Of a DNA stretch of 16,754 nt, positions 1,012 to 16,754 are shown in pieces; position 1 is the stretch's first letter, and each line of letters opens with the position of its first letter. This DNA is from a virus (taxonomy: Duplodnaviria; Heunggongvirae; Uroviricota; Caudoviricetes), in the IMG/VR virus record IMGVR_UViG_2939172355_000006, positions 1-16,754 of that record, one strand, 5' to 3'. Under the pieces are notes generated by a model. The model was not told where the DNA came from, made no database searches, and was given only the letters and a program-made list of their open reading frames with translations. A program made the position numbers and the translations under genes.

Positions 1012-1076
1012 AAGACAGGGATGGTGTCACAAAAAATCACCTAACCTACTGATATAAATGGATTTATATAAACCAC

Positions 1077-1096
1077 TGTCCACATAGCGTCCACAT
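1077..1096. repeat. Tandem direct repeat (T/C)GTCCACAT x2 with 11-bp phasing: putative integrase arm-type binding sites in the P' arm
   Basis: GTCCACAT occurs at 1078-1085 and 1089-1096. The reverse complement reads TGTGGAC(A/G), which I recall as the P2 Int arm-site consensus. The repeat lies between the ogr terminator and the bacterial junction. Confidence 0.5.
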
Positions 1097-1100
1097 CGAC

Positions 1101-1128
1101 CATAAATAAAGCCCCTCAACTGAGGGGC
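1101..1128 (-). terminator. Rho-independent terminator downstream of ogr (T-rich on both sides, possibly bidirectional)
   Basis: GCCCCTCA (1111-1118) pairs with TGAGGGGC (1121-1128) around a 2-nt loop. On the minus strand TTTATTTAT follows. On the plus strand TATTTTTGTG follows. The hairpin starts 12 nt after the ogr stop. Confidence 0.8.
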
Positions 1129-1139
1129 TATTTTTGTGA

Positions 1140-1358
1140 TCACATCCACATAATTTGCTGCCCTGACGGCAACGGGTGCGGCCTCACGGCGTGGACTTCT
1201 CCCGGCTTCACGATGTATCTCTGTACCGACTCATAAGTGATGAACGTGGCGCTGCAATTCACGTTCTGGCACTGGTGATAACGCTCTTTTGTCGTGTCAG
1301 TGATATAGCGGCTTGTACGCGCATGTGCGGCATGCTGGCATAAAGGACAATGAAACAT
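1140..1358 (-). CDS. ogr: Ogr, zinc-finger late-gene transcriptional activator of P2
   Basis: 72-aa product MFHCPLCQHAAHARTSRYITDTTKERYHQCQNVNCSATFITYESVQRYIVKPGEVHAVRPHPLPSGQQIMWM, as I recall P2 Ogr, with a CxxC...CxxxxC zinc motif. The true ATG is at 1356-1358. A perfect TATAAT lies on the minus strand at 1415-1410. Confidence 0.95.
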   Translation of the reverse strand: MFHCPLCQHAAHARTSRYITDTTKERYHQCQNVNCSATFITYESVQRYIVKPGEVHAVRPHPLPSGQQIMWM

Positions 1359-1470
1359 CGCGAGCACCTCTTCCGGTTTTGTTGATAGTGCCATTTTAGT
1401 TAAATTATCATTATAAAACAAAAAGATAAACAAAAGACATCACTCATAATCTTCTGTTTCGTACTCCACA

Positions 1471-2286
1471 TCAGAAACCGTCGCGGCGAATCAGCGTAGT
1501 GACGCCTGACTCGTTAAGCAGGTCAGCATCGGTGCCGGACTCCTGCAAATCCCAGAATACAGATGCGCTGATGCCGGTAACACCGTTCACCCCGACATTG
1601 GACAGCGTTTTATGCCAGCCCTGCTCCTGGTCGATTTTAGCGCGCAGCCCCAGCGCACGGGCGGTGGCATACGCGGTGGCGGTGGTACTGGTGACCGTAT
1701 CCCATGCGAGGAAATCCGGCCAGATGACCATCAGCTCACGCTGGCTGAAATTCTGGCGGTAGGCTTTCACCTCGGAAATGGTTTTACAGCCCCATGCGCT
1801 GATATACCCGAAAGCGCGCAGCTTCTGACAGACTGATGCCAGTGCAACAGCCACCTCTTTGGTATCCAGCCCCGGCACGCCGAGAATACGCGGTTTAACA
1901 CCGGTTACCGACTCCGCCGCCAGCAGGGCTTTCAGTCCGGTGTACTGACCGTTTTCGTCGGTGGTGCCGATGATATTGGAAACGGTCTGCGCAAGTTTCG
2001 CTTCCTCGTCGTCGCCGGTGCCGTCTTCCACACGCACGACAACGGTGACCGGTTTTGACTGGTCGGCGATGGCCTGCAACGATGCCGCCAGCGTGCCTTT
2101 TTTACCGGCCTTTGCAATTGCGCTCTGCACATTGGTAATCAGCACTGGTTTATTGAGGGGGAAGATTTCCGCATCCGCATCGCTGGCCGTGCAGACCATG
2201 CCAACAATGGCGGTGGATACGGTGGAAATGACGCGGGTGCCGTCGTTAATCTCCAGCACCTGCACGCCGTGATGATAGTCACTCAT
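1471..2286 (-). pseudogene. FI: Tail sheath gene FI, 3'-truncated (271 of about 396 codons)
   Basis: MSDYHHGVQVLEINDGTRVISTV...LLNESGVTTLIRRDGF matches the N-terminal two thirds of P2 gpFI. The reading frame ends abruptly at a TGA (1471-1473), directly abutting the sequence upstream of ogr. Confidence 0.9.
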
Positions 2287-2309
2287 CCGTTTAACTCCGT
2301 GGTTAATGG

Positions 2310-2380
2310 GTGCAACTATTTTCTGTTGGGCAGTGCATGAGACGCTATTTGACCTGGCTGGTCAGTGGATGAAACAACAG
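2310..2380 (-). promoter_or_regulatory. Putative Ogr-dependent late promoter PF upstream of FI
   Basis: On the minus strand there is an imperfect TGT-N12-(A/C)CA element (TGT 2376-2374, CCA 2361-2359). It sits about 55-60 nt upstream of the expected start downstream of an A/T-rich -10-like AAAATA (2322-2317). The position immediately after a terminator and before FI fits the P2 late-operon layout. Confidence 0.35.
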
Positions 2381-2410
2381 ATAAAGAAAAGGCAGGCAAT
2401 TCGCCCGCCT
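2381..2410 (-). terminator. Rho-independent terminator downstream of the Z/fun-slot cargo gene
   Basis: AGGCAGGC (2390-2397) pairs with GCCCGCCT (2403-2410) with one mismatch and a 5-nt loop. On the minus strand TTTCTTTAT follows. Confidence 0.6.
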
Positions 2411-2605
2411 GTCCTGATTTGTACTCACTCATTTTCCGACTGACAATTTACATAGCCAAAACGCTATCAAATCTGACAGTCTGCTTTGAGCGAGGAGCAG
2501 AGGTTAGTTTTAGTTAACCAAAATGATAAAAAGCAGTAGAAAAATCCGCTCATTACGTTATGGTTATAAGCCGCACATAATCATCCGAGCCAAATCCTCT
2601 TGATT

Positions 2606-3505
2606 TCAAAGAATTAGCACTTGCTCTTCACTAGAAACTATGGTTCTGACTTCACGCTCAAATATTGGATCCATTATCATTTTTCTATTTGTTGGAATAG
2701 TAAATTTACCGAGTACCATGACAATGCTACTCAACGGAAATAATTTTGGAGTAACATTTCCTAATTGAATCGTAGGATATATATTAAAGCCCCCTTTTAT
2801 CCTCATTGGCGAACCTTCAATGAAGTGTCGATAATTAAATTTCGCCATAGGGATTCTCGCCACATGCACTTTCATAATTACAGCAACCTGAGCTATTTTT
2901 ACTTTCTGGAGGTAAGTTGACAATCGTTCTAACTGCGTTGTTTCATAGAAAAAATCAGACCACGTTACAGTACTTGTTCCAGTAACAATTTTTATGCTGT
3001 TTCTCTTGTTGGGGTGAGCTTTTCCATATTCATAGATCTCCCGTAAGCTATCCATGTTCTTCACATAAGGGGCTTTCCGACCTCTCTTGACATAAACGCG
3101 GTCTGTAGTATCAGAAGGTGGATTTGCCTGCATAGCTGCAGCTTTTCTGCTTAATTTAGAGATATCATCTTCATCGAGTATATGTATACGGAATATATTA
3201 TTACCTGTGGCAAGCGCACGGCTGATATCATGACTGGAATCACTTGCATAAATTGTATTCAATCCTGAAGTTCCATACTGGCATAATTTGTCATGCGTGA
3301 AATTTTTTTCCAGTCTAAAGAAGGCGGGGATATGCAAGGTTTTATTAAAACTCCGACGAATATGGCTTTTGACATACACCAAATGAGCAGAGCAATTTGG
3401 GTCAGGACATTTGAGTGGATAGGGATTAACACTATAATTAAAAGTATTTACATTTACTAAAATCTGATTGTTATCAATAGCCTGAGTTATACGAATACCA
3501 CTCAT
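2606..3505 (-). CDS. Hypothetical 299-aa protein with an N-terminal Cys/His zinc-ribbon-like motif; accessory cargo in the P2 Z/fun slot
   Basis: Intact ORF with a strong SD (GGAGGAG 4 nt before the ATG at 3505). The region is clearly AT-rich relative to the flanking G and FI genes. The motif is C33-x4-C38 ... H71-x3-C75 (LKCPDPNCSAHL...FFRLEKNFTHDKLC). I recognise no enzymatic domain. Confidence 0.8.
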   Translation of the reverse strand: MSGIRITQAIDNNQILVNVNTFNYSVNPYPLKCPDPNCSAHLVYVKSHIRRSFNKTLHIPAFFRLEKNFTHDKLCQYGTSGLNTIYASDSSHDISRALATGNNIFRIHILDEDDISKLSRKAAAMQANPPSDTTDRVYVKRGRKAPYVKNMDSLREIYEYGKAHPNKRNSIKIVTGTSTVTWSDFFYETTQLERLSTYLQKVKIAQVAVIMKVHVARIPMAKFNYRHFIEGSPMRIKGGFNIYPTIQLGNVTPKLFPLSSIVMVLGKFTIPTNRKMIMDPIFEREVRTIVSSEEQVLIL

Positions 3506-3644
3506 TACTCCTCCATAAAGATAGGCGCAAGCATTTAGTAATAAACCATTAACATGCCGAGATCATACCCGATCATTGAAATGTAAACACTCCCCTAAGA
3601 CGGCTGCTGGCATAATATTTTATGACATCAGCAATGCCCACCTC

Positions 3645-3686
3645 TGGCACAGAGTGGACTGTCAGATTAGGCTTTACTCTGTGCCA
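3645..3686. repeat. Perfect 11-bp inverted repeat with a 20-nt spacer, between G and the cargo gene
   Basis: TGGCACAGAGT (3645-3655) pairs with ACTCTGTGCCA (3676-3686). No U-tract follows on either strand, so it is not a canonical intrinsic terminator. Confidence 0.6.
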
Positions 3687-3720
3687 TAGATATGTAAGCC
3701 CACACTAGAGCTCATACAAC

Positions 3721-4248
3721 TTATTGCGGCATTTCCGGCCATTCAGGATTTGCAGGATCCACACGACTGACCAGAACACTATAGCGTTCCCATGCCTCCA
3801 GTCGACTACGCTCCTCATCTGTTGCCATATTCAGCCTGACCGCGCGCTCCAGCGGCAAAATCACGGATTCAGCTTCGGAAAGCAAAGCTGCCTTATGTAA
3901 TTCCGCCAGTTTCTGCTGTTCGTCTGCCGTATAAATCCGCTTAATCACGGCACCATCCTTAAACATCCATTTACCTGAGTCGTCAGCACGTCGGTTGGAG
4001 GTAATATCAGGAACCTCAACAACGCTAAAACCTTCAGGATTAAGCGTTGAAGCATCTCTGGTGATAGCGACAATAATATTATTTTCATCGTAAACAATCT
4101 TTATTGTGTCTGGCTGAAAGTTCTTCACTTCCTCATACCAGTTTTTTCCGTCCTCAGAGTAAAGCCAGATAACTCCGTGTTTCTTTGTTAACTCATACTG
4201 TTCCAGTGTTTTAGCGTTACCCGCTTTTATGTTCTTTAAGTGCATCAT
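3721..4248 (-). CDS. G: Tail fibre assembly chaperone gpG
   Basis: 175-aa product [40 protein letters not shown]...[12 protein letters not shown]2 gpG-like. It starts 1 nt after the H stop codon. Confidence 0.9.
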
Positions 4249-4249
4249 A

Positions 4250-5331
4250 TTAAACGCTCGCTACATTATACCAGGTGCCATTTATATACTTTTGAACGGG
4301 TCTGTAATAAACGCCCGCTATATTATCGGCAGAGTTGGACCCTGTATCCTGAACATTAATACCAGACAATACATGACCTGACGGGCACTGGAAATTCCAT
4401 GTTTGCCAGTTGTTCACTCCATAATATTGCTGTGACCCAAGTCGAACATCTTTCACATATCTGGAATCAAAATTGCCATAGTTGCCAGGAATAACTTGCG
4501 AGCCACAAAGCCAGTTACCGTTATTATCCATGTACGCCTGACCATCGGTGCCATTGGCTGTCCTTGAGTTATTAATCATGTAGATGCCAAATTGCTTATT
4601 TCCCAGACCGCCAATCATAAATTTGCGGTCGGCATGGTCCTGACGGAGCAAAGCCTGAGCACCATCAGTGGATACCGCATTACGTCCAAAAATAACATTC
4701 TGGTCACGCATATGAATCCACATGCCTGTGCTGCTGTTAATTGCAAGGCGGTTTGCGTACACCCATGCGTTAGTTGTTATATCTCCTGTAACATCCAGAG
4801 CGTGCCCCATAGTTATGCGACCAGTTCTGAGATTCAACGAAAAGGGGCGTAGTGGCCCGATATCACCATTTTCCCCCTCATTCTCTCGTGTGGGGATAAT
4901 ATGCAGGCATTCTTCAGAACGGCGAAAAATAGCACCAAAGGATGAATTAAAGATTCTCAGTGCATTGACTGTCGATATTTTTACTTCACTGCTGAAAAGG
5001 GCTTTAACAAGGACAGACAAAGCATCCCATTTAAGATTCATCAGGTCTTTTGTTGTGGTGCCCTGACGGCTTCTCCATTTGAAATATTCATTGCCGTTGT
5101 CGCCTGTTTCAAACCACATGTATGAATCAGTGTCACCATCGGCATCATTTTTAAATCCAATCTTCGCCCAGTCAGTATTTCGAATCCAGGCAAGGATTGA
5201 GTCGTTTTCAAAAGTAAGTCCACCGGACAAGGTATCGCCATTTTTTTGCACGGCGTTCCCGGCTCGGTTTACCGTTTCCTGTAAACCGAGATATTCGATA
5301 ACGGCGGCAACGGTCGATTTAGCCAGAATAC
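4250..5331 (-). pseudogene. H: Tail fibre gene H, 5'-truncated (about the C-terminal 360 codons of about 669)
   Basis: My own translation of the open frame upstream of the ORF-track GTG reads ...ILAKSTVAAVIEYLGLQETVNRAGNAVQKNGDTLSGGLTFENDSILAWIRNTDWAKIGFKND..., matching the central region of P2 gpH. There is no start codon and the N-terminal half is absent. The receptor-binding C-terminus diverges from my recollection of P2. Confidence 0.85.
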
Positions 5332-5691
5332 CGTGAGCGCGCTGGTTTCAGGTTCATACTCAATCACCGCCCCGTCAGGGAAACGGATATGCAGGGCATC
5401 CGCCGACGCAGACGGCGCGGGGTTATCGCCGGAATAAATCCCCGGCAGAACGAACGCCGTGTCGAGTTCACCACCCACGGCCAGAATCAGCACCTGTTCC
5501 CCCACGGAAGGTGCCCACCATGTGCGCGAACGCCCGGCGCGATGGGTCAGCCACTGAAGCCAGTCGGTGCACATGCCGCCGGTCTGCACACGGCAGCGAC
5601 CGGCATTAAGGTCGGTTTCGACGATAATGCCGGTGCGGATCATGTTGCGCAGTGCGCGCGCGAGTTCCTGAATATTTGCGAGAGTGTTCAT
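5269..5691 (-). pseudogene. V: Baseplate spike gene V, 3'-truncated (121 of about 211 codons, then an out-of-frame tail)
   Basis: MNTLANIQELARALRNMIRTGIIVETDLNAGRCRVQTGGMCTDWLQW...EYEPETSALTV matches the P2 gpV N-terminus from the ATG at 5689-5691. After codon 121 (about 5329) the frame reads FWLNRPLPPLSNISVYRKR*, which is H-gene DNA in the wrong frame. Confidence 0.85.
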
Positions 5692-5699
5692 GCGTGTGA

Positions 5700-5760
5700 G
5701 ATTGCACAATATATAAAAGTTATGCTATCTGGATTCATTTGTAGAACGACCATACAACAT
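5700..5760 (-). promoter_or_regulatory. Putative Ogr-dependent late promoter PV
   Basis: On the minus strand there is a TGT (5756-5754)...ACA (5742-5740) dyad with an 11-nt spacer (the consensus I recall is N12). TATATT follows at 5713-5708, just upstream of the V start. The region overlaps the divergent upstream region of the 5775 gene. Confidence 0.35.
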
Positions 5761-5774
5761 TCGAGGAGAGCGTA

Positions 5775-6560
5775 ATGTTCAGTGATAATGTGACTAATGC
5801 GTGGTGGTTTATCTCTTTGTATCTATTTTTATTAATAGCATTAACATTTGTTACCTTTGGTAAAAGTAATCTTATGAGGTTTATTGCACATCATTTCAAT
5901 CTTGAGTATTCAGACAGAAAGTTAAAAATGCTCGACAAAAAATGGCGCGACATTCAACTATTTAAAATAATTAACGGAATCAATGTATCAGGCATCGAAG
6001 ATGTGAGAATGATACAGCAGGGGCTGATTGATGGAAAACTAAAAACATCGTATTTTTTCCTTACTCGCTTCTGGGGTGACATAACAAAACCACCACACAT
6101 AATTAAAACAACAATTGTAATTCTGGCCAGTATTATTTATATTCTCTTCGCATGTTATATACACAATGAACAATCCGCTATAGTAAGGGATGCCATAGGT
6201 ATACCATATAAAAATATGATGTACTATGTTTATAGTGACAAAGTTCTTTTATCCTTCAAAAATAAAACGGTTGAATTTAATAAAACTTATAGCCTTGCCG
6301 ATTGCAAGAGTCTGCAAAACGTATTTATAAAAGACACACTTCCCGAGATCGCCTGCAATAAGCTCTTACAGCTAAACAAGGAGGACTCCGAATGGTTAAG
6401 TCAGGAGATTAAAGATAATAACAGCTACAGAAAAACATTATTAATAATGTCCCTAACCTATTTCATTTCAGGTCTGCTTATATTCCTGTCATATACAAAA
6501 TTCCTTTACGCCAATAAGAAGGTTTTAGAATACAAAGCATCAAATAAAAACCACTCATAA
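5775..6560 (+). CDS. Hypothetical 261-aa membrane protein (three predicted TM helices); accessory cargo in the P2 orf30 slot between S and V
   Basis: Intact ORF with an SD (GAGGAG 5763-5768). It is very AT-rich and lies on the opposite strand to the flanking late genes. Hydrophobic segments are AWWFISLYLFLLIALTFVTFG, IIKTTIVILASIIYILFACYI and TLLIMSLTYFISGLLIFLSY. I recognise no catalytic motif. Confidence 0.8.
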   Translation: MFSDNVTNAWWFISLYLFLLIALTFVTFGKSNLMRFIAHHFNLEYSDRKLKMLDKKWRDIQLFKIINGINVSGIEDVRMIQQGLIDGKLKTSYFFLTRFWGDITKPPHIIKTTIVILASIIYILFACYIHNEQSAIVRDAIGIPYKNMMYYVYSDKVLLSFKNKTVEFNKTYSLADCKSLQNVFIKDTLPEIACNKLLQLNKEDSEWLSQEIKDNNSYRKTLLIMSLTYFISGLLIFLSYTKFLYANKKVLEYKASNKNHS

Positions 6561-6570
6561 ACCTCTAAAT

Positions 6571-6597
6571 ATTGAGCGACCAGCACGGCCGCTCAAT
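6571..6597. terminator. Hairpin between the convergent genes at 5775-6560 and S; possible bidirectional terminator
   Basis: ATTGAGCG (6571-6578) pairs with CGCTCAAT (6590-6597) around an 11-nt loop. The flanking T-tracts are weak. Confidence 0.4.
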
Positions 6598-6631
6598 GCT
6601 TAATTGCGCATCAGCCTCTGCCTGGATAAAA

Positions 6632-7084
6632 CTAACGCTCAAGGTGAGCCAGGATAATCTCTTCAATCATCTGCACATCCTCACCGGTAAAGCCGAGCAG
6701 AGGACGCGCCGGATAATCAATTTTCTTACCGTCTTTCCGGTTTTCTTCCGACAGACCGAACTGATGCACACTGGCGATTTTCGGTGACTTCCCGCCGTAA
6801 AACTCCATTGATGCCTGTTCCGGGCTGGCGCGGATATGCAAAAAACGACTGGTGATAAGTTTCGCAAACATTTTTCGCTTAACACGACCGGTCTTTTTTC
6901 TGGCGCTCTGCTGCTGGCGTGGCGCGTAGGGTGTGCCGTCCGGAGTTTTCTGTGCCATCACCCGACGCTGCTGACTCTGCCGCAGGCGTTTCGCCAGTTC
7001 GGCACTCAGTCGCCGACGCCCTGACGGTGACAGCGATTCAATCAGTCCGGTCAGCCGGTCTTCAAAACGCTTAAACTCATTCAT
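6632..7084 (-). CDS. S: Tail completion protein gpS
   Basis: 150-aa product MNEFKRFEDRLTGLIESLSPSGRRRLSAELAKRLRQSQQRRV...MIEEIILAHLER, P2 gpS-like. It overlaps the end of R by 8 nt. Confidence 0.9.
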   Translation of the reverse strand: MNEFKRFEDRLTGLIESLSPSGRRRLSAELAKRLRQSQQRRVMAQKTPDGTPYAPRQQQSARKKTGRVKRKMFAKLITSRFLHIRASPEQASMEFYGGKSPKIASVHQFGLSEENRKDGKKIDYPARPLLGFTGEDVQMIEEIILAHLER

Positions 7085-7544
7085 CCCACTTGCTCACCAG
7101 TTCGCCATTGATATACAGCTCCATCGGGCGGGTGACCGGCTCCGGCGGCGGAGGTTCCGGGATATTCTTCACATGCAGCGCGCCGTCCACCTCACTGACC
7201 AGCGTGCGCTCGGTCAGCATCAGGCTGATACTGATATCAAAGCTGCTGTCATTGTTGATGTCCGCATAAAACGTGAAGCCCTTTTTCTGGCCTGCGTCGG
7301 TGGTCATGATGTCGGGCTGATTTTCCCGCAGCCACGCTAGCACCGGCACGATGAGCAGGTCAAAATCACCGGTAAAGTCGGTCACAATGACATTGAGCGT
7401 GTAACGCTTTTCAAATGACAGCGACCTCGCCAGTGTGGAGGCAATACTCCCGTTATCCACGAATATCCGCAGCATCTCGGGACTGGTTTTCAGCACCGTG
7501 ACAGCATCAGTCAGCGCCCTGCGCAGGCTGTCGGGTTTGAGCAT
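7077..7544 (-). CDS. R: Tail completion protein gpR
   Basis: 155-aa product MLKPDSLRRALTDAVTVLKTSPEMLRIFVDNGSIASTLA...LYINGELVSKWDE, P2 gpR-like. Confidence 0.9.
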   Translation of the reverse strand: MLKPDSLRRALTDAVTVLKTSPEMLRIFVDNGSIASTLARSLSFEKRYTLNVIVTDFTGDFDLLIVPVLAWLRENQPDIMTTDAGQKKGFTFYADINNDSSFDISISLMLTERTLVSEVDGALHVKNIPEPPPPEPVTRPMELYINGELVSKWDE

Positions 7545-7797
7545 CGTTTTCGTCCTGACAGTGTTTAATCATTTTTACCTGGCTGGCACAGCGTGCCAGC
7601 GCGTTCTCAAGCTGCCGGATATCAGCACTTAAATCGCCGTTCGTCTCCGGGTCACTGCCCGGCATCGGGCAAAGGCTCACTTTCGGGCAGGCGTTGTGGA
7701 CAATCACTGGCGTCGGCGCAGGCCGGGCGCTGGTGCAACCGGCGCACAGCATCAGGCAGGTCAGCGCCGTACCAGCGGCGAAAATCTTCGTTTTCAT
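7507..7797 (-). CDS. lysC: LysC, outer-membrane lipoprotein spanin subunit (Rz1-like), embedded out of frame in lysB and running into R
   Basis: 96-aa product MKTKIFAAGTALTCLMLCAGCTSARPAPTP... with a lipobox (LCAGC). It starts at the internal ATG at 7797 of the 7507-7914 ORF. The overlapped architecture is known for P2 lysB/lysC. Confidence 0.8.
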   Translation of the reverse strand: MKTKIFAAGTALTCLMLCAGCTSARPAPTPVIVHNACPKVSLCPMPGSDPETNGDLSADIRQLENALARCASQVKMIKHCQDENDAQTRQPAQGAD

Positions 7798-8077
7798 TAA
7801 GTAACCTCGTGATGGTTTTCTCGCGCTGTGCTTCACGCTTCGCGGCGTTCTCCAGCTCCTGACGCAGTGCCACCTGCGCCAGCTCGTTTTTGTCTGCCCT
7901 GGTAAGGGCAACATGAAGCTGATTTTTCAGCATGGTGATGGTCGTCTGCTGTTCACTGGCGACGTTGTTCGCCCTGTCCAGCGAGGCGCGCAGGCTGGCA
8001 TTTTTGTGTTTCACCAGAAACAGACCGGCCACCGCCAGTGATAACAACACGACCAGCACAATCATCAGCTTTGACAT
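7652..8077 (-). CDS. lysB: LysB, inner-membrane spanin subunit (Rz-like)
   Basis: 141-aa product MSKLMIVLVVLLSLAVAGLFLVKHKNASLRASLDRANN... with an N-terminal TM helix and a coiled-coil region. P2 LysB-like. Confidence 0.9.
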   Translation of the reverse strand: MSKLMIVLVVLLSLAVAGLFLVKHKNASLRASLDRANNVASEQQTTITMLKNQLHVALTRADKNELAQVALRQELENAAKREAQREKTITRLLNENEDFRRWYGADLPDAVRRLHQRPACADASDCPQRLPESEPLPDAGQ

Positions 8078-9364: not shown

Positions 9365-9369
9365 ACATC

Positions 9370-9391: not shown

Positions 9392-9533
9392 ACACCCCGT
9401 CATCACGCCCTCACACGTTCGCCACTGTACAAAACACCCCGCAGACACACCAACGCCCCGGCAGGCCGACTAAACGCCATCACGACGCGCTCAGACGCTG
9501 AAAAAATAAAATCAGCACCACCGCCAGCGCGCA

Positions 9534-9552
9534 GTGCTTTCCCCGCCTCGCC
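9534..9552 (-). other. P2 cos site (19-nt cohesive-end sequence)
   Basis: The reverse complement of 9534-9552 is GGCGAGGCGGGGAAAGCAC, which is the P2 cohesive end as I recall it. It sits at the expected position just beyond Q. Confidence 0.8.
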
Positions 9553-9779
9553 CGCCCGCTTCATGGGTCGGTTTTGATGCAATTCCAAAAGCCGTCCAAA
9601 CTCTCTTAGGCTAAATGTCCAACGAGAAAATAGTTCTTTGAATGTGAATGCATTTTAATGCAGAGTTATGCCCAGCATTTTTGTACACTTCGATGTATCA
9701 AATGCGCTGCAAACGATCAAATATGGATGTTTTATCAAGCATCCCCCAAAAGATATTTACATCATCCCATGAGGTTAAG

Positions 9780-10853
9780 ATGGATAACAAAATCGTAGAA
9801 ATTGAGACAAATAAGCTTGATTTTGACCCTAAAAACCCACGTTTCTTTCGTCTCAATGATGCCAGTAACGCTGCAACAGTCATTGAGGAAATGTTAGATG
9901 ACGAAAGTGTCCACGATCTAATGCTATCAATCGGTCAGCAAGGTTACTTTCCTGGAGAACCTTTATTGGCAGTAAAAAGCAATGGAAACTACATCGTGGT
10001 TGAGGGAAACAGACGCTTAGCTGCTGTAAAGTTGCTCAATGGAGATCTGCTTCCTCCAAAAAGAAAACTTAAAGGTGTGCAAGAAATCATTGATGATACT
10101 ACCAATAAACCTAAGAAGCTTCCCTGCATCATTTATGAAAACCGAGAGGATGTACTGAGATATATCGGTTATCGTCATATAACTGGGGTCAAAGAATGGG
10201 ACTCATTATCTAAAGCCAAATACCTTAAAGAGTTATGTGATACTTTTTATTCACATGAGCCTAAAGAGATAGTATTAAAAAATCTGGCTCGTGAGATTGG
10301 GAGTAAACCACATTATGTTGCAACACTTCTCACTGCACTGAACTTATATGAAGTCGCGCATGACCATGAGTTTTTTAATTTACCCATGAAGGCTTCTGAC
10401 GTGGAATTTTCATATATAACCACAGCTTTGGGATATTCAAAAATCACAAACTGGTTAGGTCTACAGGATAAAAAGGATTTTTTAGACCCAAATTTAAATG
10501 AAGAAAACCTTAAGCGTTTATTCTCTTGGTTTTTTGTGCCTGACCAACAAGGTAGAACCATCATCGGTGAGTCTCGAAGAATAAAAGATATTGCAGCAGT
10601 GGTTGAGAAACCCGAAGCAATTGAAATTCTCATGAAAAGTTCAAACTTGGATGAAGCATATCTATATACCAGCGGAGAAAGAGAAGCATTAGATAAAGCA
10701 CTAAACGCAGCTAGTGTTAAATTAAGAGTAGTTTGGGATATGCTACTTAAAGCTAAAGAATTAACATTAGAGCATGAAGAGGCTGCATCTGAAATTTTTG
10801 AGATGTCAAAAAATATTAGAAATCAGATCAGAAGCAAAAGGGAGGATGATTGA
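9780..10853 (+). CDS. ParB/Srx-like N-terminal domain protein with a central HTH-like region (357 aa); accessory cargo, first gene of a two-gene operon
   Basis: The preferred start is the ATG at 9780, preceded by GAGG (9771-9774). The N-terminus is typical of ParB-like domains (LDFDPKNPRF) and the arginine-patch motif VVEGNRRLAAVKLL has GNRR at 10005-10016. A helix-turn-helix-like segment (LAREIGSKPHYVATLLTAL) follows. The gene is AT-rich. Confidence 0.75.
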   Translation: MDNKIVEIETNKLDFDPKNPRFFRLNDASNAATVIEEMLDDESVHDLMLSIGQQGYFPGEPLLAVKSNGNYIVVEGNRRLAAVKLLNGDLLPPKRKLKGVQEIIDDTTNKPKKLPCIIYENREDVLRYIGYRHITGVKEWDSLSKAKYLKELCDTFYSHEPKEIVLKNLAREIGSKPHYVATLLTALNLYEVAHDHEFFNLPMKASDVEFSYITTALGYSKITNWLGLQDKKDFLDPNLNEENLKRLFSWFFVPDQQGRTIIGESRRIKDIAAVVEKPEAIEILMKSSNLDEAYLYTSGEREALDKALNAASVKLRVVWDMLLKAKELTLEHEEAASEIFEMSKNIRNQIRSKREDD

Positions 10854-10857
10854 GATT

Positions 10858-11883
10858 ATGATTACAAATCTTGATTCAATGCCTTCTAATGAGCCTTATT
10901 TATGGGCTGATTATATTGAGATATTGGCCTTAACTAATATCGACAGGTCATTCAGTCGAGGAGACCTATATAGCACACTGCAAGCTCAACCCGAAGCAGT
11001 ACTAGCTGAAACAGATGAAGCAGAAGAAGAGGGCGTTTATGATGTTGATGATGAAAATGATACGCCTGTACGCAAGAGAACAAAACGAAGTGTTAGTCGA
11101 GCATATACTGACAGAAAGTGGAGCTATGCGATAGGCTTCATACGACAACGCATTGATTTATTTGGGGATAGTTACCCTTTTACTTTATCAGAAGACAACG
11201 ATACTGTAGAGTTACGTGATATATCAGAAAAGCCACTGGAACATTTAGAAAGACTATATTTAGCTTTACTAATCTGTGCTAACATAAAATATGTCAACAT
11301 AATGAGCAGAAGAGAGATAACGCGCAGTTTTGAACTAATTAGTTTACCTATTTTTGAAAGCCTAATGCCTAGCGGTAGCATAATAAAAGCATGCTGGGCT
11401 TCTGGTGGTCAAGCGGCCCCTTACACTGGAACTCTATATAATAAATTTAAGAGTATTGCTTCCGATATCCGTTGCACAGCGAACTTCAAAGAACGAGATT
11501 TCAGTCGAGGAAATAGTGGTGACGGAGGCCTTGACATAATTGCCTGGCATCCAATGGGAGATCAACGAGATGCCATCCCTATTTCTTTTGTTCAGTGTGG
11601 CTGTTCTCAAGAAGAGTGGGAAGCGAAGCAGCTTGAGGCCTCACCTGCGATGCTCTACAGTAAATTCCCCGTAGCTCACCGATGGGCAACTTATTATTTC
11701 TTACCTCAAGATCTACGATGGATAGATGGTGAGTGGGCGCATAAAAATAAGTTAGGCGATGCTATTTTTGTTGATCGCCTAAGATTAATCAATTTAACCA
11801 GAGCATCTGATAATATTGATCACAGTCAAAATATTAGCTATCTAGATATCATCCTTGATCCTTCCAGCGCGATCGCTGCTTAA
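10858..11883 (+). CDS. Hypothetical 341-aa protein with a C-terminal Mrr/PD-(D/E)xK-like nuclease motif; accessory cargo, second gene of the operon
   Basis: The ATG at 10858 lies 5 nt after the upstream TGA (10851-10853), with GGAGG at 10841-10845. An alternative ATG at 10846 overlaps the upstream gene. The motif GNSGDGGLDIIAW-x13-ISFVQCGC (about 11512-11600) resembles the Mrr catalytic core (D-G-G-hD ... hQxK), but Gly replaces the expected Lys. An acidic stretch ETDEAEEEGVYDVDDENDT lies near the N-terminus. Confidence 0.7.
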   Translation: MITNLDSMPSNEPYLWADYIEILALTNIDRSFSRGDLYSTLQAQPEAVLAETDEAEEEGVYDVDDENDTPVRKRTKRSVSRAYTDRKWSYAIGFIRQRIDLFGDSYPFTLSEDNDTVELRDISEKPLEHLERLYLALLICANIKYVNIMSRREITRSFELISLPIFESLMPSGSIIKACWASGGQAAPYTGTLYNKFKSIASDIRCTANFKERDFSRGNSGDGGLDIIAWHPMGDQRDAIPISFVQCGCSQEEWEAKQLEASPAMLYSKFPVAHRWATYYFLPQDLRWIDGEWAHKNKLGDAIFVDRLRLINLTRASDNIDHSQNISYLDIILDPSSAIAA

Positions 11884-12818
11884 TCCCATAAATCTGGAAG
11901 GTTTCTAGCAACCGCCTCAAACAATGGAGGCGGTACTGCATTACCTACCACAGTATATTTCATATTAATAGAAGCCCGTTCAGTTTCTGGGAAAATTAAA
12001 TCCCCAAAACCTTGTAAAATAGCAGCCTCTCGATAGCTAAACCTACGAGCTGGTGCATCCGAAGTAAATTGCCACTTATCAGGTCCCAATTTTTCTAATG
12101 TTGGACTTATTGGATGTAGAGGCATATGTCTAGGATTTGCAACAATTGTTTTAGATATCTGATCCCAATCTTGCCTACGGTTTCGCGATAGATAATACCA
12201 ATGAAAATCGGCGTCATAAAACTCGCCAACAGGCCAAACAGGCATATGCCCAATAGCATCACGAATTGTGGAATATGGTGTCAAACCATCACCATGTGTT
12301 GGTTTTGGAAATTTGTATGTAATACCGTAGTCCTTTCGTATTCCTACGATAAAGATTCGCTTCCTATCTTGGGATACCCCATAATGGGACGCATTCAGAA
12401 TTTGCGAGCTTACTGTATAACCTGCTTCTTCGAAAACTTTGAATTGATCCTTTAATAAATGCTCAAAGTTACGCCTTACCATACCAGAGACATTCTCTAC
12501 AATGAATGCTTTTGGCTTAATTTTACTCAAAGCACGGGCAAACTCTAAATATAGTGTATTAATCTTTCTATCTGCCTTCCTTGCCCCACCTTGACTAAAT
12601 CCTTGGCAAGGATAGCATCCGATGAGCAACTCAGCAGAAGGGAACGACTGGAGCCCTGAGATATCGCCCAAAATGTAGTCAGTTTCAGGATGGTTTTCTA
12701 AGTAAACGTCCCTTGCGTAAGGCAAAATATCATTTGCCATAAGCACATTGAAACCTGCGTTCAAAACTCCCGCATCAGAACCACCACATCCAGAAAAAAG
12801 TGAAACTACAGTTGGCAT
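11880..12818 (-). CDS. DNA (cytosine-5)-methyltransferase
   Basis: 312-aa product with the canonical m5C MTase motifs: I FSGCGG, IV PCQGFS (catalytic Cys71, about 12606-12608), VI ENV, VIII QDRKRIFIVG, IX RRFSYREAAILQGF, X GNAVPPPL. A strong SD (AGGAGG) precedes the ATG at 12818. Its stop overlaps the stop of the convergent 10858-11883 gene. Confidence 0.92.
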   Translation of the reverse strand: MPTVVSLFSGCGGSDAGVLNAGFNVLMANDILPYARDVYLENHPETDYILGDISGLQSFPSAELLIGCYPCQGFSQGGARKADRKINTLYLEFARALSKIKPKAFIVENVSGMVRRNFEHLLKDQFKVFEEAGYTVSSQILNASHYGVSQDRKRIFIVGIRKDYGITYKFPKPTHGDGLTPYSTIRDAIGHMPVWPVGEFYDADFHWYYLSRNRRQDWDQISKTIVANPRHMPLHPISPTLEKLGPDKWQFTSDAPARRFSYREAAILQGFGDLIFPETERASINMKYTVVGNAVPPPLFEAVARNLPDLWD

Positions 12819-13060
12819 TGACCCCTCCTAAAAACCGACCGCGTATTATAGCGAAACACCCCGTTGGGAAAAGCTAGATTTTGCCAAGTCTTGATATTCT
12901 CACGTTTTAGTAGTTGTGGCCATCTTTAACGAGAAAAAGATAAAATTGACTTCTCATTAATTTTCAATAGGTTTAATTGTAAGCTCAAACTAACGCCTCG
13001 CGACACTCGTTATTCAACCCCGCCAGCCCTGAAAACAAGTTTCACGACTGGCGGCGTTCT

Positions 13061-13267
13061 CTATCGTCTGCGTTGTGGTGGCGCAACTCTGGACTGACCG
13101 ATATGGTTAAACCGCCCGTAATTATCCCGGACTATTTCGGCACACCCGACCAGCTCATCGGGCGTCAGATTTTCGTTGACCATAATCCGCTGTAAACGCT
13201 GAACAATAGCCATCAGCTTGATATTTTTAGTTTTATGGTGCGGTATCTCGCCTGGTATTCTGTGCAT
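13061..13267 (-). CDS. Small hypothetical early-region protein (68 aa)
   Basis: The ATG at 13265-13267 overlaps the upstream TAA in a TAATG coupling motif. The GC content matches the phage backbone. I recognise no domain. It is the last backbone ORF before the AT-rich cargo, at the position where orf83/A would follow in P2. Confidence 0.5.
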   Translation of the reverse strand: MHRIPGEIPHHKTKNIKLMAIVQRLQRIMVNENLTPDELVGCAEIVRDNYGRFNHIGQSRVAPPQRRR

Positions 13268-13719
13268 TATCCAAGCCACCCGTTTTGCTGTGCACGCTCC
13301 ATCTGTTCATCTGAATAGTTCCATGCTCCATCCGTGGCAACCATTGCCCCGCCAGACATCCCCGTCTCTGGTTCATACATAACAGCAAGGCCGAGCTGAT
13401 GCATAATTTCATGATTAATTCTGAATACCAGACCACGCTCACTAAGTTCTTTCCAGTTCACAATCTCACATGCGCCTGTATTAAGCCGCTCAATACTTAG
13501 CAAGACATAATCTTCCAGCCAGTCTGACAGGTCAGTAACATCTGTTATCCGGGCTTCAACCTTTCGCCCCGTATACACACCCTGCACCCATTCATGCAAA
13601 ATCAACGTGTCCCCGCGCTCATAATTACGGTCATTTTTCCGAAACTCTGCGCGTTTCTTTCCTTCCAGCACAAGGTCAAAATATTTTGCGTGCAGCTTTA
13701 CCTCGTGAATTTTTGCCAT
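13267..13719 (-). CDS. DUF3850 (ASCH/PUA-like) domain protein with a C-terminal HExxH-containing extension (150 aa)
   Basis: [44 protein letters not shown] matches the DUF3850 signature as I recall it (HELKI.P.YF..v..G.K.fE.RkNDR.f.vGD.l.L.E). HEIMH is encoded at 13413-13399. The ATG at 13717-13719 overlaps the upstream TAA (TAATG). Confidence 0.75.
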   Translation of the reverse strand: MAKIHEVKLHAKYFDLVLEGKKRAEFRKNDRNYERGDTLILHEWVQGVYTGRKVEARITDVTDLSDWLEDYVLLSIERLNTGACEIVNWKELSERGLVFRINHEIMHQLGLAVMYEPETGMSGGAMVATDGAWNYSDEQMERAQQNGWLG

Positions 13720-14252
13720 TATGTCCACTCCATTACTGTTGAGAATCCCGGCCACTCATCAGCGACCGGATACGTGAATTTTTTCCCGTCATAATTTACG
13801 GTCGCTCCACGCGCCAGCGCCTCAAGCTCCCATCGCTGAGGCCTGATACCGTTCTGAGCAAGGTCAACGCGGATACGGGTGATTTGCATTCGTTCCGACC
13901 GGGTCAGTCTGGCCGACGGTGCAATTTCATGTGTTTTTAACGGGCTTCCGTTTCTTTGTTGACGATTTGGTGTTTTCAGGCCGTGTTTTAATGCTCCCCT
14001 GAGCGCCCTCACGACCTCCGGGTCATTCCATTCGATAACACCGTCATCAACCAGATTTAGCACTGCTGCGGCGTGCTCAGAAGGTGTGGGAGCCGGTAAC
14101 GAAGCATCACTACCGGTGAGCTTTGTGATGTGGCGAATCATGGCGTCAAGATGAGAAGAAAAGCGCGTTGCTGCGTCGGCCTGTGCTTCGGTTCTGACCT
14201 GTTGCAGCAGTAATGCGTATTTACCGCACTGATTTTCAGAAACTGTATGCAT
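13719..14252 (-). CDS. Hypothetical early-region protein (177 aa)
   Basis: The ATG at 14250-14252 has GGAG 6 nt upstream. The ORF-track start at 14285 is a TTG. The N-terminal segment ([26 protein letters not shown]) is reminiscent of the small P2 orf80-type proteins. The rest is unrecognised. Confidence 0.65.
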
Positions 14253-14315
14253 GACTTTCTCCAGGCAAAAAGAAGCCCCGCACAATTAAGTGCGTTAAAA
14301 ACTCTGGTTAATTAC

Positions 14316-14816
14316 TTAATGCAGATATTGCTCTGGTTTTACCGACGTCAGGATTGTCGGTGCATACTCAAACAGGCTGAATAATTCACGTAATGCACGG
14401 AATAAGGCATCACGCCAGTAACATGATTCTTCATTAATTCGCCAGTATGGCTGGTTGAATTCTTTTTCAGTCAATCCGGCATGCATAAATAAAGTACGGC
14501 GCTGACTGACAGTTAAAAAGCTAATATATGCATACTCACTTGCACCGACCTGACGGCGTTTTGAGAATGCCCCACGCAATTCATCAATTGCACATACCAG
14601 TCGTTCACGTTCGACGTCGTTCATTTCTTCAAAACGCATCGTTGCGTGACGCTGTTTTAACTGTGCATGAAAGCAAACCGTTAGCCGTTCGCGCTCCATC
14701 ATCTGATTATAATAATCACATGTATCCTGCCAGCGAGGGACGGCAAGATGCTTGCCAATTATCCGGCGCATAGCTGCTGGCTGTTTTTCAACGAGATTGA
14801 GCGTCATCACTGTCAT
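14316..14816 (-). CDS. B: P2 gpB, replication protein (DnaB helicase loader)
   Basis: 166-aa product MTVMTLNLVEKQPAAMRRIIGKHLAVPRWQDTCDYYNQMMERERLTVCFH...ILTSVKPEQYLH, as I recall P2 gpB. The ATGA overlap with the upstream small ORF indicates translational coupling. Confidence 0.88.
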   Translation of the reverse strand: MTVMTLNLVEKQPAAMRRIIGKHLAVPRWQDTCDYYNQMMERERLTVCFHAQLKQRHATMRFEEMNDVERERLVCAIDELRGAFSKRRQVGASEYAYISFLTVSQRRTLFMHAGLTEKEFNQPYWRINEESCYWRDALFRALRELFSLFEYAPTILTSVKPEQYLH

Positions 14817-14983
14817 TTCCAGCCCCTCCGGCTTTTCAGAAAGGTCAGAGCCTTTTTTAACGGACTCTGTTTTTTGGTGCGGATAATGATTCCCTTACGC
14901 CCCTTACCGTGGGTGATGGTGAAGTCAATCGCCCTGGGGCTTTCGTTACGCAGTAACTGAGCAATACAACGCGGTTCACTCAT
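14813..14983 (-). CDS. Small early protein in the P2 orf78 position (56 aa)
   Basis: The ATG at 14981-14983 lies 2 nt after the cox stop. The product is MSEPRCIAQLLRNESPRAIDFTITHGKGRKGIIIRTKKQSPLKK... and its stop overlaps the B start (ATGA). Position and size fit orf78. Confidence 0.6.
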   Translation of the reverse strand: MSEPRCIAQLLRNESPRAIDFTITHGKGRKGIIIRTKKQSPLKKALTFLKSRRGWK

Positions 14984-14985
14984 AA

Positions 14986-15258
14986 TCACAACCCCATCCA
15001 CAAAAGCCATGCATCACGCTGTTCAACTGGTCGGTTATAAAACGCCTCTCGTACAGCGCGATTAAACTCTGGAATGAAAACCCACTTCTCACCGACACGA
15101 GCGTTCGGCTTACTTGGATCACGAAGCTCAATAACTGGCAACTTATTCTCTTTTACCATCTTGACTACAGCCGTTTCTGGCTTACCAAGTAACTCTGCAA
15201 ACTTAACCGTATGTACCGCATCAATCGGGTACTGAATCACATAGTCATTGACTTCCAT
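14986..15258 (-). CDS. cox: Cox-like protein (Pc repressor, excisionase and directionality factor)
   Basis: 90 aa and first gene of the early operon. The pattern ...KFAELLGKPETAVVKMVKENKLPVIELRDPSKPNARVGEKWVFIPEFN...RDAWLLWMGL parallels P2 Cox (..GKLPVIDM.DP.....RAGEYWVYLPAWN....RDGWLMWLGL). Confidence 0.85.
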   Translation of the reverse strand: MEVNDYVIQYPIDAVHTVKFAELLGKPETAVVKMVKENKLPVIELRDPSKPNARVGEKWVFIPEFNRAVREAFYNRPVEQRDAWLLWMGL

Positions 15259-15298
15259 TGATTAGCCCTTTTTGCTTTCGTGTTACCCTTATTAGATC

Positions 15299-15337
15299 CA
15301 GTCCCTTCTAGGTCGCACCTGTCCTTTCTAGGGACTG
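15299..15337. promoter_or_regulatory. Direct repeat GTCC(C/T)TTCTAGG x2 (20-bp phasing) nested in an 8-bp inverted repeat; putative Cox or repressor binding sites in the cox leader
   Basis: GTCCCTTCTAGG lies at 15301-15312 and GTCCTTTCTAGG at 15321-15332. CAGTCCCT (15299-15306) is the reverse complement of AGGGACTG (15330-15337). Confidence 0.45.
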
Positions 15338-15354
15338 GCTAACACACTCAAAAG

Positions 15355-15398
15355 GTCACCAATACACAACCTTTTGACGGGAATATAAGTCACCAATA
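15355..15398. promoter_or_regulatory. Perfect 10-bp direct repeat GTCACCAATA x2 (34-bp phasing) flanking the Pe -10/start region: putative C-repressor operator half-sites
   Basis: The copies lie at 15355-15364 and 15389-15398. One copy sits in the Pe and Pc spacers and the other just downstream of the predicted Pe start. P2 C is known to bind direct repeats flanking the Pe -10. Confidence 0.5.
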
Positions 15399-15402
15399 GG
15401 TT
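15374..15402 (+). promoter_or_regulatory. Putative repressor promoter Pc, convergent with Pe
   Basis: TTGACG (15374-15379), a 17-nt spacer, then TAGGTT (15397-15402). The predicted start at about 15409-15411 coincides with the C start codon at 15411. No SD precedes C, which suggests a leaderless or near-leaderless mRNA. Confidence 0.35.
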
Positions 15403-15410
15403 ACTGTCAA
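15375..15410 (-). promoter_or_regulatory. Early promoter Pe (drives cox, B and the early operon)
   Basis: Near-consensus sigma-70 promoter on the minus strand: TTGACA (15410-15405), a 17-nt spacer, then TATATT (15387-15382). The predicted start is near 15375. Confidence 0.6.
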
Positions 15411-15704
15411 ATGCAGACATTCGAAAAACTGAAAGCGATTAGGAAAGCAGAAGGCTTAACACAGGCGAAATTCAGCGAAATTAGCGGGATAGCTCTAGGA
15501 ACAGTCAAAAATTACGAAAGTGGGCATAAAGACCCTGGTCTCAGCATCGTTATGCGAGTCACAAATACGCCTTTATTTAAAAAATATACGCTCTGGTTAA
15601 TGACTGGTGATACGTCACCACAAGCTGGTCAGATCGCGCCGGCTCTCGCACACATTGGGCAAAAACCAACAGAATCAGACCACTCCGAAAAACAGACTGG
15701 TTAA
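15411..15704 (+). CDS. C: P2 C-type immunity repressor (HTH, 97 aa) of a non-P2 immunity class
   Basis: An N-terminal HTH (LTQAKFSEISGIALGTVKNYESG) and a C-terminus ...KKYTLWLMTGDTSPQAGQIAPALAHIGQKPTESDHSEKQTG parallel P2 C (..TKYALWFMTNQIAPESGQIAPALAHFGQ...). The N-terminal half diverges. Confidence 0.85.
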   Translation: MQTFEKLKAIRKAEGLTQAKFSEISGIALGTVKNYESGHKDPGLSIVMRVTNTPLFKKYTLWLMTGDTSPQAGQIAPALAHIGQKPTESDHSEKQTG

Positions 15705-15773
15705 CACTCTATAAACATTACATTTTCACCATTTGTTACCAAGATGGTGAATACAGCGTCAGAGGGCTTTCTT

Positions 15774-16754
15774 ATGTCAATTAAGAAGCTCGATGATGGA
15801 CGCTATGAAGTGGACATTAGACCTCGCGGTCGCGACGGAAAACGCATCCGCAGGAAATTTGAAAGAAAAGCTGAGGCTGTAGCATTTGAGCGATACACAA
15901 TCGCCTACGCCAGCCAGAAAGAATGGGCAGGTCAGCGAGCAGATCGCAGAACTTTGAGTGAGTTGCTGAACATCTGGTGGAAATATCACGGGCAAAACCA
16001 CGAGCATGGAACAAAAGAGTTTAATCATCTGCTCAAAACCATCAGCGGCATAGGTGATATACCAGTGAGCCGGATGAGCAAAAGAGCTTTGATGGATTAT
16101 CGTTCCATGCGACTACGTGATGGTATCAGTGCCGCAACGATAAACCGTGACATGTACCGATTATCCGGCATGTTCACAAAATTAATTCAATTGGATGAAT
16201 TTTCCGGGCAACACCCAATTCACGGACTGCCGCCACTGGCGGAGGCCAACCCTGAAATGACGTTCCTGGAAAAAGCAGAAATCGAAAAACTGTTAAATGT
16301 TTTGGATGGTGATGACTTACTTGTCGCACTTTTATGTCTGAGCACTGGAGGAAGATGGACGGAAGTTGCCACGCTAAAACCAGCACAGATTACAAATTGC
16401 AGGGTTACCTTCCTGAAAACCAAAAACGGTAAAAAGCGAACCGTGCCGATTTCTGAGGAACTGGAGAAAAAAGTTAAAGAGGAGGCCAGCGCTAAATTAT
16501 TCAAAGTTGATTATGAGAAGTTTTGCGGGATTTTACGCAGAGTGAAGCCAGATATACCACCCAATCAGGCAACCCACATCCTGCGGCATACATTCGCAAG
16601 CCATTTCATGATGAATGGGGGCAATATAATCGCACTGCAACAGATTCTGGGACATGCGAGCATTCAGCAGACGATGGCCTATGCGCACCTTGCGCCTGAC
16701 TACCTGCAAAATGCCGTCGCGCTGAATCCTCTAAAAGGCGGAGTGACGTTATAA
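15774..16754 (+). CDS. int: Tyrosine recombinase, P2-family integrase (326 aa)
   Basis: The ATG at 15774 has AGAGGG 7 nt upstream. The N-terminal arm-binding-type domain begins MSIKKLDDGRYEVDIRPRGRDGKRIRRKF. Catalytic motifs are present: TGGRWTE (Arg), HILRHTFASH (H-x-x-R) and GHASIQQTMAYAHL (Tyr). The stop lies at the window end. Confidence 0.92.
   Translation: MSIKKLDDGRYEVDIRPRGRDGKRIRRKFERKAEAVAFERYTIAYASQKEWAGQRADRRTLSELLNIWWKYHGQNHEHGTKEFNHLLKTISGIGDIPVSRMSKRALMDYRSMRLRDGISAATINRDMYRLSGMFTKLIQLDEFSGQHPIHGLPPLAEANPEMTFLEKAEIEKLLNVLDGDDLLVALLCLSTGGRWTEVATLKPAQITNCRVTFLKTKNGKKRTVPISEELEKKVKEEASAKLFKVDYEKFCGILRRVKPDIPPNQATHILRHTFASHFMMNGGNIIALQQILGHASIQQTMAYAHLAPDYLQNAVALNPLKGGVTL

Follow-up and report, generated by a model that had tools for sequence, protein, structure and literature searches.

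One of the questions that a decaying prophage raises is whether the genes it still carries are kept by selection or have simply not been lost yet. The stretch of viral DNA analyzed here (16,754 nucleotides, positions 1 to 16,754 of the IMG/VR virus record IMGVR_UViG_2939172355_000006; hereafter the window) contains a P2-like prophage of Escherichia coli that has lost large parts of its backbone and kept all of its accessory genes. A first-pass annotation of the sequence read this pattern as domestication of the prophage as a carrier of defence or accessory genes, with purifying selection acting on this cargo and on repressor-mediated immunity rather than on the phage functions. Our comparison with intact relatives and with complete genomes supports a more modest reading, which we consider likely: what is left here of a Wphi/SIAC10-type P2-like prophage at fieF-cpxP is young and non-autonomous, and it is vertically inherited in E. 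coli sequence type 410 (ST410).

A megablast search against phage records identified the viable P2-like phage SIAC10 (OU784549.1/NC_070904.1) as the best match, with seven pieces that together cover 93% of the window (99.4% identity), followed by Wphi (AY135739; 84% of the window, 97.5% identity). The element is a P2-like (Peduovirus) prophage of the Wphi type with a collinear P2 gene order, and its five blocks are 96-100% identical to SIAC10. Gene names were compared with the P2 record AF063097, and the annotation of the window is based on RefSeq NZ_CP033401.1, in which the region is identical to the window. SIAC10 forms plaques on E. coli C, the strain used for its isolation (PMC9122126), which shows that the ancestral layout works. 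SIAC10 and Wphi share with the element the gene order, cos, the int/C/cox type, orf44 and the orf98/orf96/mth genes; SIAC10 also carries orf30, as the element does, whilst Wphi is without it. Unlike both phages, the element is without 17.7 kb of essential genes and makes no particles.

The deletions were mapped by blastn against SIAC10 and against the full-length prophage of strain EC45, and their coordinates are given in SIAC10. There are exactly four of them, 17,670 bp in total, between the five collinear blocks. D1 (10578-16025; 5,448 bp) removed D (97%), U, T, E/E', FII and the C-terminal 31% of FI. D2 (19866-22890; 3,025 bp) removed the N-terminal 48% of H, then I, J, W and the C-terminal 43% of V. 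D3 (26077-32513; 6,437 bp) took K (98%), Y, X, L, M, N, O and P together with the first 58 codons of Q, and D4 (4573-7332; 2,760 bp) took the N-terminal 82% of A, orf83, orf82, orf81 and 41% of orf80. In the window, the junctions lie at 1470-1477 (D1, placed by the blastn breakpoints, with the microhomology ATCAGAAA/ATCGGAAA), 5329-5330 (D2), 8504-8512 (D3) and 14121-14124 (D4). All four show 2-9 bp of microhomology, partly imperfect, and such short homology at the junctions marks them as products of illegitimate recombination. The accessory loci separate four backbone blocks (the F operon, the V operon, the O/P operons and the early replication operon), and each of these has lost 56-81% of its length to a single deletion.

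These alignments bear out the four deletions of the first-pass annotation and, in substance, its list of lost genes (the F-D genes; I, J, W and the N-terminal part of H; the P-K genes and the N-terminal part of Q). The list was incomplete in that it left out the truncation of FI, V and orf80 and the loss of orf81-83 and of the replication origin (ori), and gene A, given as absent, still has a C-terminal remnant of 135 codons. The genes listed as retained (ogr, G, S, R, lysA/B/C, B, cox, C, int, the cargo) and cos were all found, identical to EC45. The element has the marks of a P2-type phage, namely a 19-nt cos, a 47-bp attL/attR repeat and a tyrosine integrase (int, 326 amino acids (aa), as in Wphi). 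It does not have the full essential gene set of a functional phage: of the essential genes, 15 are missing entirely or nearly so and another four (FI, H, V and Q) are truncated. The element is a defective derivative and no functional member of Peduovirus. In P2 the ori nick is at position 29892 of AF063097, which corresponds to a point 22 nt within D4; the element is thus without the cis replication site besides gpA, which agrees with the earlier suggestion that replication was probably lost. The element is non-autonomous, having no capsid, terminase, tube, baseplate, holin, endolysin, gpA or ori, and the inability to build particles and to lyse the cell was correctly foreseen. With this gene content, replication, packaging, particle building and lysis are all impossible for it.

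The distribution of the four-deletion form was studied by searching junction-spanning probes against 5,426 complete genomes. Junctions D1, D2 and D4 were each found in 68 genomes and D3 in 70, and all four occur together in the same 68. A first count for D1 (74) included joined half-matches and became 68 when one long piece across the junction was required. Those early counts of 74, 68, 70 and 68 had suggested intermediates; the idea was rejected, as the surplus D1 matches were joined half-matches. Six further genomes, not among the 68, have both halves of the D1 probe (ogr/D' and FI') at most 700 bp apart, and these genomes would therefore carry other, independent deletions in the D-FI tail operon of other P2-like remnants. 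No intermediate with only some of the deletions was found among the 5,426 genomes by junction probes, intact-boundary probes or the contexts of the truncated open reading frames (ORFs) FI', H' and Q', and in none of them does a junction occur alongside this H allele with its boundary intact. Of the truncated ORFs, FI' appears in 476 and Q' in 474 public assembly blocks, with the same context in all that were read; over the truncated ORFs the counts range from about 475 to 1,240 blocks. An assembly artefact, which the first-pass annotation had itself named as a possible objection, is ruled out, since the same junctions recur in 68 closed genomes that are independent of each other, and in strain WCHEC020031, the one checked for this, every junction probe matches at one place only.

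Every one of the 68 copies sits in the chromosome, and most of them have similar coordinates in genomes that are also similar in size. The carriers LZ00114/CP087570, E2, WCHEC115106 and KBN10P04869 belong to ST410, an international high-risk clone (PMC8976530, PMC9405272). Long-term conservation across diverged hosts is not what is seen: the four-deletion form is present in 68 of the 5,426 genomes and every typed carrier is ST410. ST410's most recent common ancestor goes back to the early 1800s, ~200 years (PMC6052333), and the four deletions would be no older than a few centuries, in keeping with the age of the clone. The proposed population survey was meant to reveal whether the deletion set is fixed in a lineage; it is, and it is young.

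The youth of the element is also evident from its closest relatives. EC45 (NZ_CP059125.1) carries a full-length sister prophage at the same fieF-cpxP site which is identical over every retained base (0 substitutions in the 15.8 kb retained, the apparent differences being alignment artefacts in the junction microhomologies), and ~11 kb of chromosomal flank are also identical between EC45 and the window lineage. Unlike the element, EC45 has kept all the genes, but an insertion sequence (IS), the IS21-family element ISEc12, sits in its scaffold gene O (record excerpt 9852-12154); the corresponding site was removed by D3 in the ST410 form. Another full-length sister prophage, LT594504, was matched by search hits only, and intact versions turned up in ~28 genomes when we probed for undeleted backbone together with the same cargo. 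Strain FAHZZU6014 (NZ_CP182912.1) has the same prophage at the same site with identical flanks and 99.99% identity (3 mismatches in 23.9 kb), and one different deletion that runs from P to S (~7.5 kb, or 10.07 kb in EC45 coordinates including ISEc12). This deletion removes the head, lysis and R genes and keeps all cargo; it fuses a P fragment to a truncated S (excerpt 7675-8329).

The identity with EC45 decides how the intact genes should be read. With zero substitutions there is no dN/dS (nonsynonymous to synonymous substitution) signal, and the retained ORFs are intact because the deletions are young. The genes ogr, G, S, R, lysA/B/C, B, orf78, cox, C and int and the cargo ORFs are all identical to EC45, and the functionless G, S, R and lysABC, as well as the eight truncated genes, are as pristine as the cargo. 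We infer that intactness of the retained genes reflects recency, with no measurable purifying selection.

The placement of the deletions is another matter. In our null model, four non-overlapping deletions of the observed sizes were placed at random, with the cargo taken as three blocks. Random placement spared all cargo ORFs in 0.6% of trials (p=0.006), and the cargo together with cox/C/int/ogr and cos in 0.06% (p=0.0006). When we conditioned on the sparing of mth and C, whose loss is plausibly lethal, the result for orf44, orf30 and orf98/96 was still p=0.010. Two decays that were found via an H-gene probe, without reference to cargo, repeat the sparing independently: FAHZZU6014 (p=0.12) and E4 (NZ_CP104516.1; p=0.039). 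The latter is an unrelated P2-like prophage at a different att site (trhP/ogrK) with three independent deletions (4,534, 6,423 and 1,680 bp), and it keeps orf44, orf30, A, an 82-bp cos fragment between a deletion and the cargo, and a retron-type cargo (reverse transcriptase plus helix-turn-helix) in the A-Q hotspot. Altogether there are eight deletions over three independent cases (ST410, FAHZZU6014 and E4) and none of them is in cargo. The data support a deletion placement that is non-random relative to the accessory genes.

The accessory genes are found in three slots. Cargo 1 (2606-3505, minus strand) encodes an AT-rich, 299-aa homologue of Wphi orf44, which it matches in position and size, and belongs to phrog_7195, a family of unknown function; it is located in the fun(Z) hotspot, between G and FI. 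Cargo 2 (5775-6560, plus strand), between V and S, encodes a predicted membrane protein of 261 aa with 84% aa identity to P2 Orf30 over its full length (phrog_2407), a protein that is non-essential in P2. All three slots were spared, as first described, and the V-S slot holds this ordinary P2 orf30 homologue and no novel cargo. The third slot, the A-Q (old/tin) hotspot, is placed between cos/Q and A and includes cargo 3a (9780-10853, plus strand; Wphi orf98 homologue, a ParB-N-domain protein), cargo 3b (10846-11883, plus strand; Wphi orf96 homologue) and cargo 3c (11880-12818, minus strand), the C5 cytosine DNA methyltransferase Wphi mth (PF00145, E=1e-61; also matched by the PADLOC methyltransferase models). 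Both hotspots are defined as P2 defence hotspots (PMC9122126, PMC9519451), and the position of the cargo in them was confirmed. Two small accessory genes, a 68-aa ORF and one for a DUF3850/ASCH protein, lie at the orf91 position (13061-13719, minus strand).

Residues 1-151 of orf98 match PD-Lambda-5_A (PADLOC, E=2.5e-24), and orf98 also matches the candidate PDC-M38A. PD-lambda-5 was described as a compact system of restriction-modification and abortive infection (RM+Abi; PMC9519451), and due to this resemblance of its N-terminus, orf98 together with orf96 is probably the restriction-like partner of the Mth methylase. No Pfam or PADLOC match was found for orf44, orf30 or orf96, for which PHROGs gave only families of unknown function, and Pfam, PADLOC and PHROGs showed no toxin-like feature for orf44 or orf30. 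It is the locus and partial homology that suggest a defence role for the cargo. In a homologue search, the orf96 family (~305 aa, no Pfam domain) proved to be widespread at 40-55% identity in Enterobacterales, Burkholderiales and methylotrophs. An mth homologue at 93% identity is present without orf98/orf96 in 36 complete genomes (several of them O145), so the methylase travels with other partners in the same hotspot.

Inside the clone five variants were seen in total. In FXCREC123 and JXZ9A32M, IS5 is inserted in orf96 at codon ~53 (window 11005). A T>G change in orf96 turns Leu141 from TTA to TGA (window 11267) in E22 and in GCA_029947345.1, and in the latter it is the sole difference from the window in 15.25 kb. 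In E2, IS2 is inserted at window 9717, 63 bp upstream of the orf98 ATG. Of the remaining two variants, one is an IS4 near attL, outside coding DNA, and the other is a single-nucleotide polymorphism between cox and C. The latter, T>C at window 15397 in F070 (AP023237.1), is the sole difference there and falls in the Pe/Pc switch region, 14 nt upstream of the C start codon. The orf98/orf96 genes are being inactivated in sublineages, orf96 at least twice independently, and no disruption of mth or of the structural remnants was found among the five variants. Loss of the nuclease side with retention of the methylase is the usual pattern for restriction-modification modules. The pattern suggests that the restriction-like partner may be dispensable or costly and the methylase not. 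Under the first-pass annotation, disruptions as frequent in the cargo as in the structural genes would speak against domestication, and by this yardstick the cargo does fail, with three events in orf98/orf96 and none in the remnants.

Several explanations can be considered for this pattern. Domestication in full, in which the prophage serves as a defence-gene carrier with purifying selection on every cargo ORF and on repressor immunity whilst the phage functions are free to decay, would fit the four large deletions that spare all cargo, C, cox, int and cos (p=0.006 to 0.0006), the position of the cargo in two known P2 defence hotspots and the likeness of the orf98 N-terminus to PD-Lambda-5_A beside a C5 methylase. 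Such elements are also known more generally, as defective P2-like elements were reported with defence genes near-identical to those of intact phages, and the question of domestication was asked there (bioRxiv 10.64898/2026.02.27.708500, Fig. 6C). Yet the element shows zero substitutions against EC45 anywhere and hence no signal of purifying selection, its functionless and truncated genes are equally intact, ~6 kb of useless backbone are still carried, and three independent loss-of-function events have hit orf98/orf96 inside the clone (3 of 5 variants, p≈0.02). We therefore find this full form unlikely. What stands of the domestication proposed at first is the non-random placement with its replicates; the purifying selection on cargo does not, since there are no substitutions, useless remnants are just as intact and the cargo itself is disrupted within the clone. 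Another option is neutral decay and chance, with a random deletional bias in a dead prophage and a sparing of cargo that was picked out afterwards. The junctions with short microhomology inside genes, the eight truncated ORFs, the absence of clean module boundaries and the youth of the element all agree with it. Since P2-like backbone probes have matches in over 2,000 of the 5,426 genomes, many decaying copies are probable and some of them will show any given pattern, and the K-12 remnant has lost everything. However, the sparing has p=0.006 in this element and is repeated in two further independent decays, which weakens pure chance, and each deletion eats most of its own inter-cargo block and halts before the cargo. 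We consider neutral decay by chance rather improbable.

Selfish retention, in which the accessory and immunity genes persist since losing them kills the cell (the methylase in the presence of an active nuclease, the repressor in the presence of lytic genes), draws on the finding that disruptions fall only on the presumed nuclease side and never in mth, and on the RM+Abi nature of PD-lambda-5. Addiction alone, though, leaves the sparing of orf44 and orf30 unexplained, as conditioning on mth and C still gives p=0.010; these two genes have no toxin-like feature in our searches, and after D4 the repressor is no longer needed for survival. As a full account, selfish retention is to our mind quite improbable. 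The last option is that the remnant is still mobilised by a co-infecting P2-like helper, as a satellite that arose by deletion. The element has kept cos, int, cox and both att cores intact, the 82-bp cos fragment is kept in E4, and twice the element length (31.5 kb) is, by arithmetic, near the P2 genome size. Against such a hitcher, ori and gpA are gone, ORFs like sid, psu, delta or alpha are absent from the annotation, the 68 copies all sit in chromosomes and mostly at similar coordinates, and there is no second P2-like copy or helper prophage in WCHEC020031, the one carrier checked. The features of phage satellites, namely an own replication module, hijacking genes and transfer between unrelated hosts, are not seen here, and we hold mobilisation by a helper to be very improbable. 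One may also speculate, with a slim chance of being right, that whole-block backbone deletion is a repeatable selected route by which P2-like prophages are rapidly reduced to fixed defence islands, a repeatability supported by the three independent cases, and that the retained cos, int, cox and att might permit excision and packaging by a P2-like helper, e.g., of a ~31.5-kb dimer.

The more probable course, then, is that of a young remnant inherited with its host clone. A functional Wphi/SIAC10-type phage would have lysogenised the ancestor of the ST410 complex, and within a couple of centuries at most its sublineages would have disabled the prophage differently, by an IS in O, by one deletion or by four. 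In the successful clone, four microhomology-mediated deletions would have gutted each backbone block. Loss of the lytic functions was probably favoured or neutral, and deletions reaching the accessory or immunity genes were probably filtered out, either via a benefit to the host or via addiction to the methylase or the repressor. Such a filter would account for deletions that occupy the backbone blocks and end before the cargo. For ongoing purifying selection on all of the cargo we find no evidence, and the orf98/orf96 module is being lost.

Several points weigh against this reading and should be kept in mind. The placement statistic is post hoc for the window, which was flagged for that very pattern, and the uniform-placement null is naive. 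The replicates are few, with a Fisher combined p of ~0.03 for FAHZZU6014 and E4. The ORFs that are intact carry no signal of purifying selection, as seen from the comparison with EC45, and three of the five variants in the clone fall in orf98/orf96, which make up 14% of the element. The typing of ST410 by literature covers a handful of the 68 carriers. Any function of the cargo genes orf44, orf30 and orf98/orf96 is putative, and among four P2-like isolates including SIAC10, only phage AC1 was reported to be protective. Finally, the cryptic P2 remnant of K-12 shows that erosion can remove all cargo. This remnant (ogrK and a D fragment at locI) resembles our element in its attL-proximal ogr and D fragment beside the host flank. 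It differs in having lost all cargo, the switch and int, in its much more advanced erosion and in its att site.

The remaining features of the window follow the gene order of P2. The host gene fieF (1-903, minus strand; RefSeq annotation NZ_CP033401.1) forms the attL flank and cpxP is found directly past the window end. The 47-bp attL core (982-1028), which puts the element start slightly further left than the position 1035 given at first, is a perfect direct repeat of attR, whose core lies 116-162 nt past the window end (exact repeat at 6982-7028/22870-22916 of the flanking locus). The core contains a perfect GC-rich hairpin, CCCCCACATCATGTGGGGG, followed by host sequence 3' of fieF, and this hairpin looks like a fieF terminator that integration would regenerate. 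The 19-nt cohesive end of cos (9534-9552) is an exact match to the reverse complement of P2 cosL (GGCGAGGCGGGGAAAGCAC), and its position equals the ends of the linear SIAC10 record.

Next to attL lies the late-gene activator ogr (1140-1358, minus strand; annotated ogrK), which is intact and 100% identical to SIAC10 and EC45. A 38-nt D remnant (1440-1477) adjoins D1 and is followed by FI', a tail-sheath pseudogene of the N-terminal 272 codons (1471-2286, minus strand; annotated as partial, C-terminus missing). The tail-fibre assembly gene G (3721-4248, minus strand) is annotated as intact but is orphaned, and beside it is the H' tail-fibre remnant, the C-terminal half of the gene (4250-5330, minus strand; annotated as a 333-aa ORF). 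Within H', ~240 bp (4755-4997) do not align to SIAC10 (242 against 221 bp) and are identical in EC45. Here the element differs in allele from SIAC10, and the segment appears to be a case of tail-fibre allele mosaicism among otherwise near-identical phages. V' (5331-5691, minus strand) is a baseplate-spike pseudogene of the N-terminal ~121 codons, annotated as partial. The genes S, R, lysC, lysB and lysA (6632-8490, minus strand) are intact but orphaned, and the portal pseudogene Q' (8504-9364, plus strand) is annotated as partial, without its first 58 codons. On the other side of the A-Q cargo, the C-terminal 135 codons of the replication endonuclease gene remain as A' (13719-14124, minus strand), with the ori nick just beyond, in D4, and the fragment orf80' (14125-14252) comes after the D4 junction. 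B, orf78 and cox (14316-15258, minus strand) are intact and 100% identical to SIAC10 and EC45. The immunity repressor C (15411-15704, plus strand; 97 aa) is intact and of the Wphi type by annotation and by comparison with Wphi, and so is int (15774-16754, plus strand), whose stop codon is the window end.

In the literature, a survey of incomplete prophages found that replication, packaging and lysis genes are lost whilst tail fibre and integrase genes are kept (PMC7744054), and the gene classes lost and kept by our element agree with this trend. Since defective P2-like prophages that keep defence loci are already described, the conceptual gain is small, and the element is an ordinary, well-resolved new example of a known phenomenon. 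Unlike in the earlier work (bioRxiv 10.64898/2026.02.27.708500; PMC7744054), the ancestor and the host clone can be named here and exact breakpoints and a timescale given, and one cargo module is caught being inactivated, which the surveys do not report for this element. A literature search found no published link between ST410 and this P2-like remnant. The viable phage, the full-length sister, the one-deletion sister and the four-deletion form together make an unusually clean and datable snapshot of decay, and because these states are available with identical sequence, the breakpoints, the constraints on order and the timescale (at most ~two centuries) are known. For the study of prophage remnants there is also a caution in this, namely that intact accessory genes cannot be read as a sign of purifying selection without a check of divergence. 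ST410 is a plasmid-rich, multidrug-resistant clone, and the inactivations of orf98/orf96 suggest the loss of a restriction-like function there. The repeated knock-out in ST410 of a cargo that is likely restriction-like could bear on the acquisition of plasmids by the clone.

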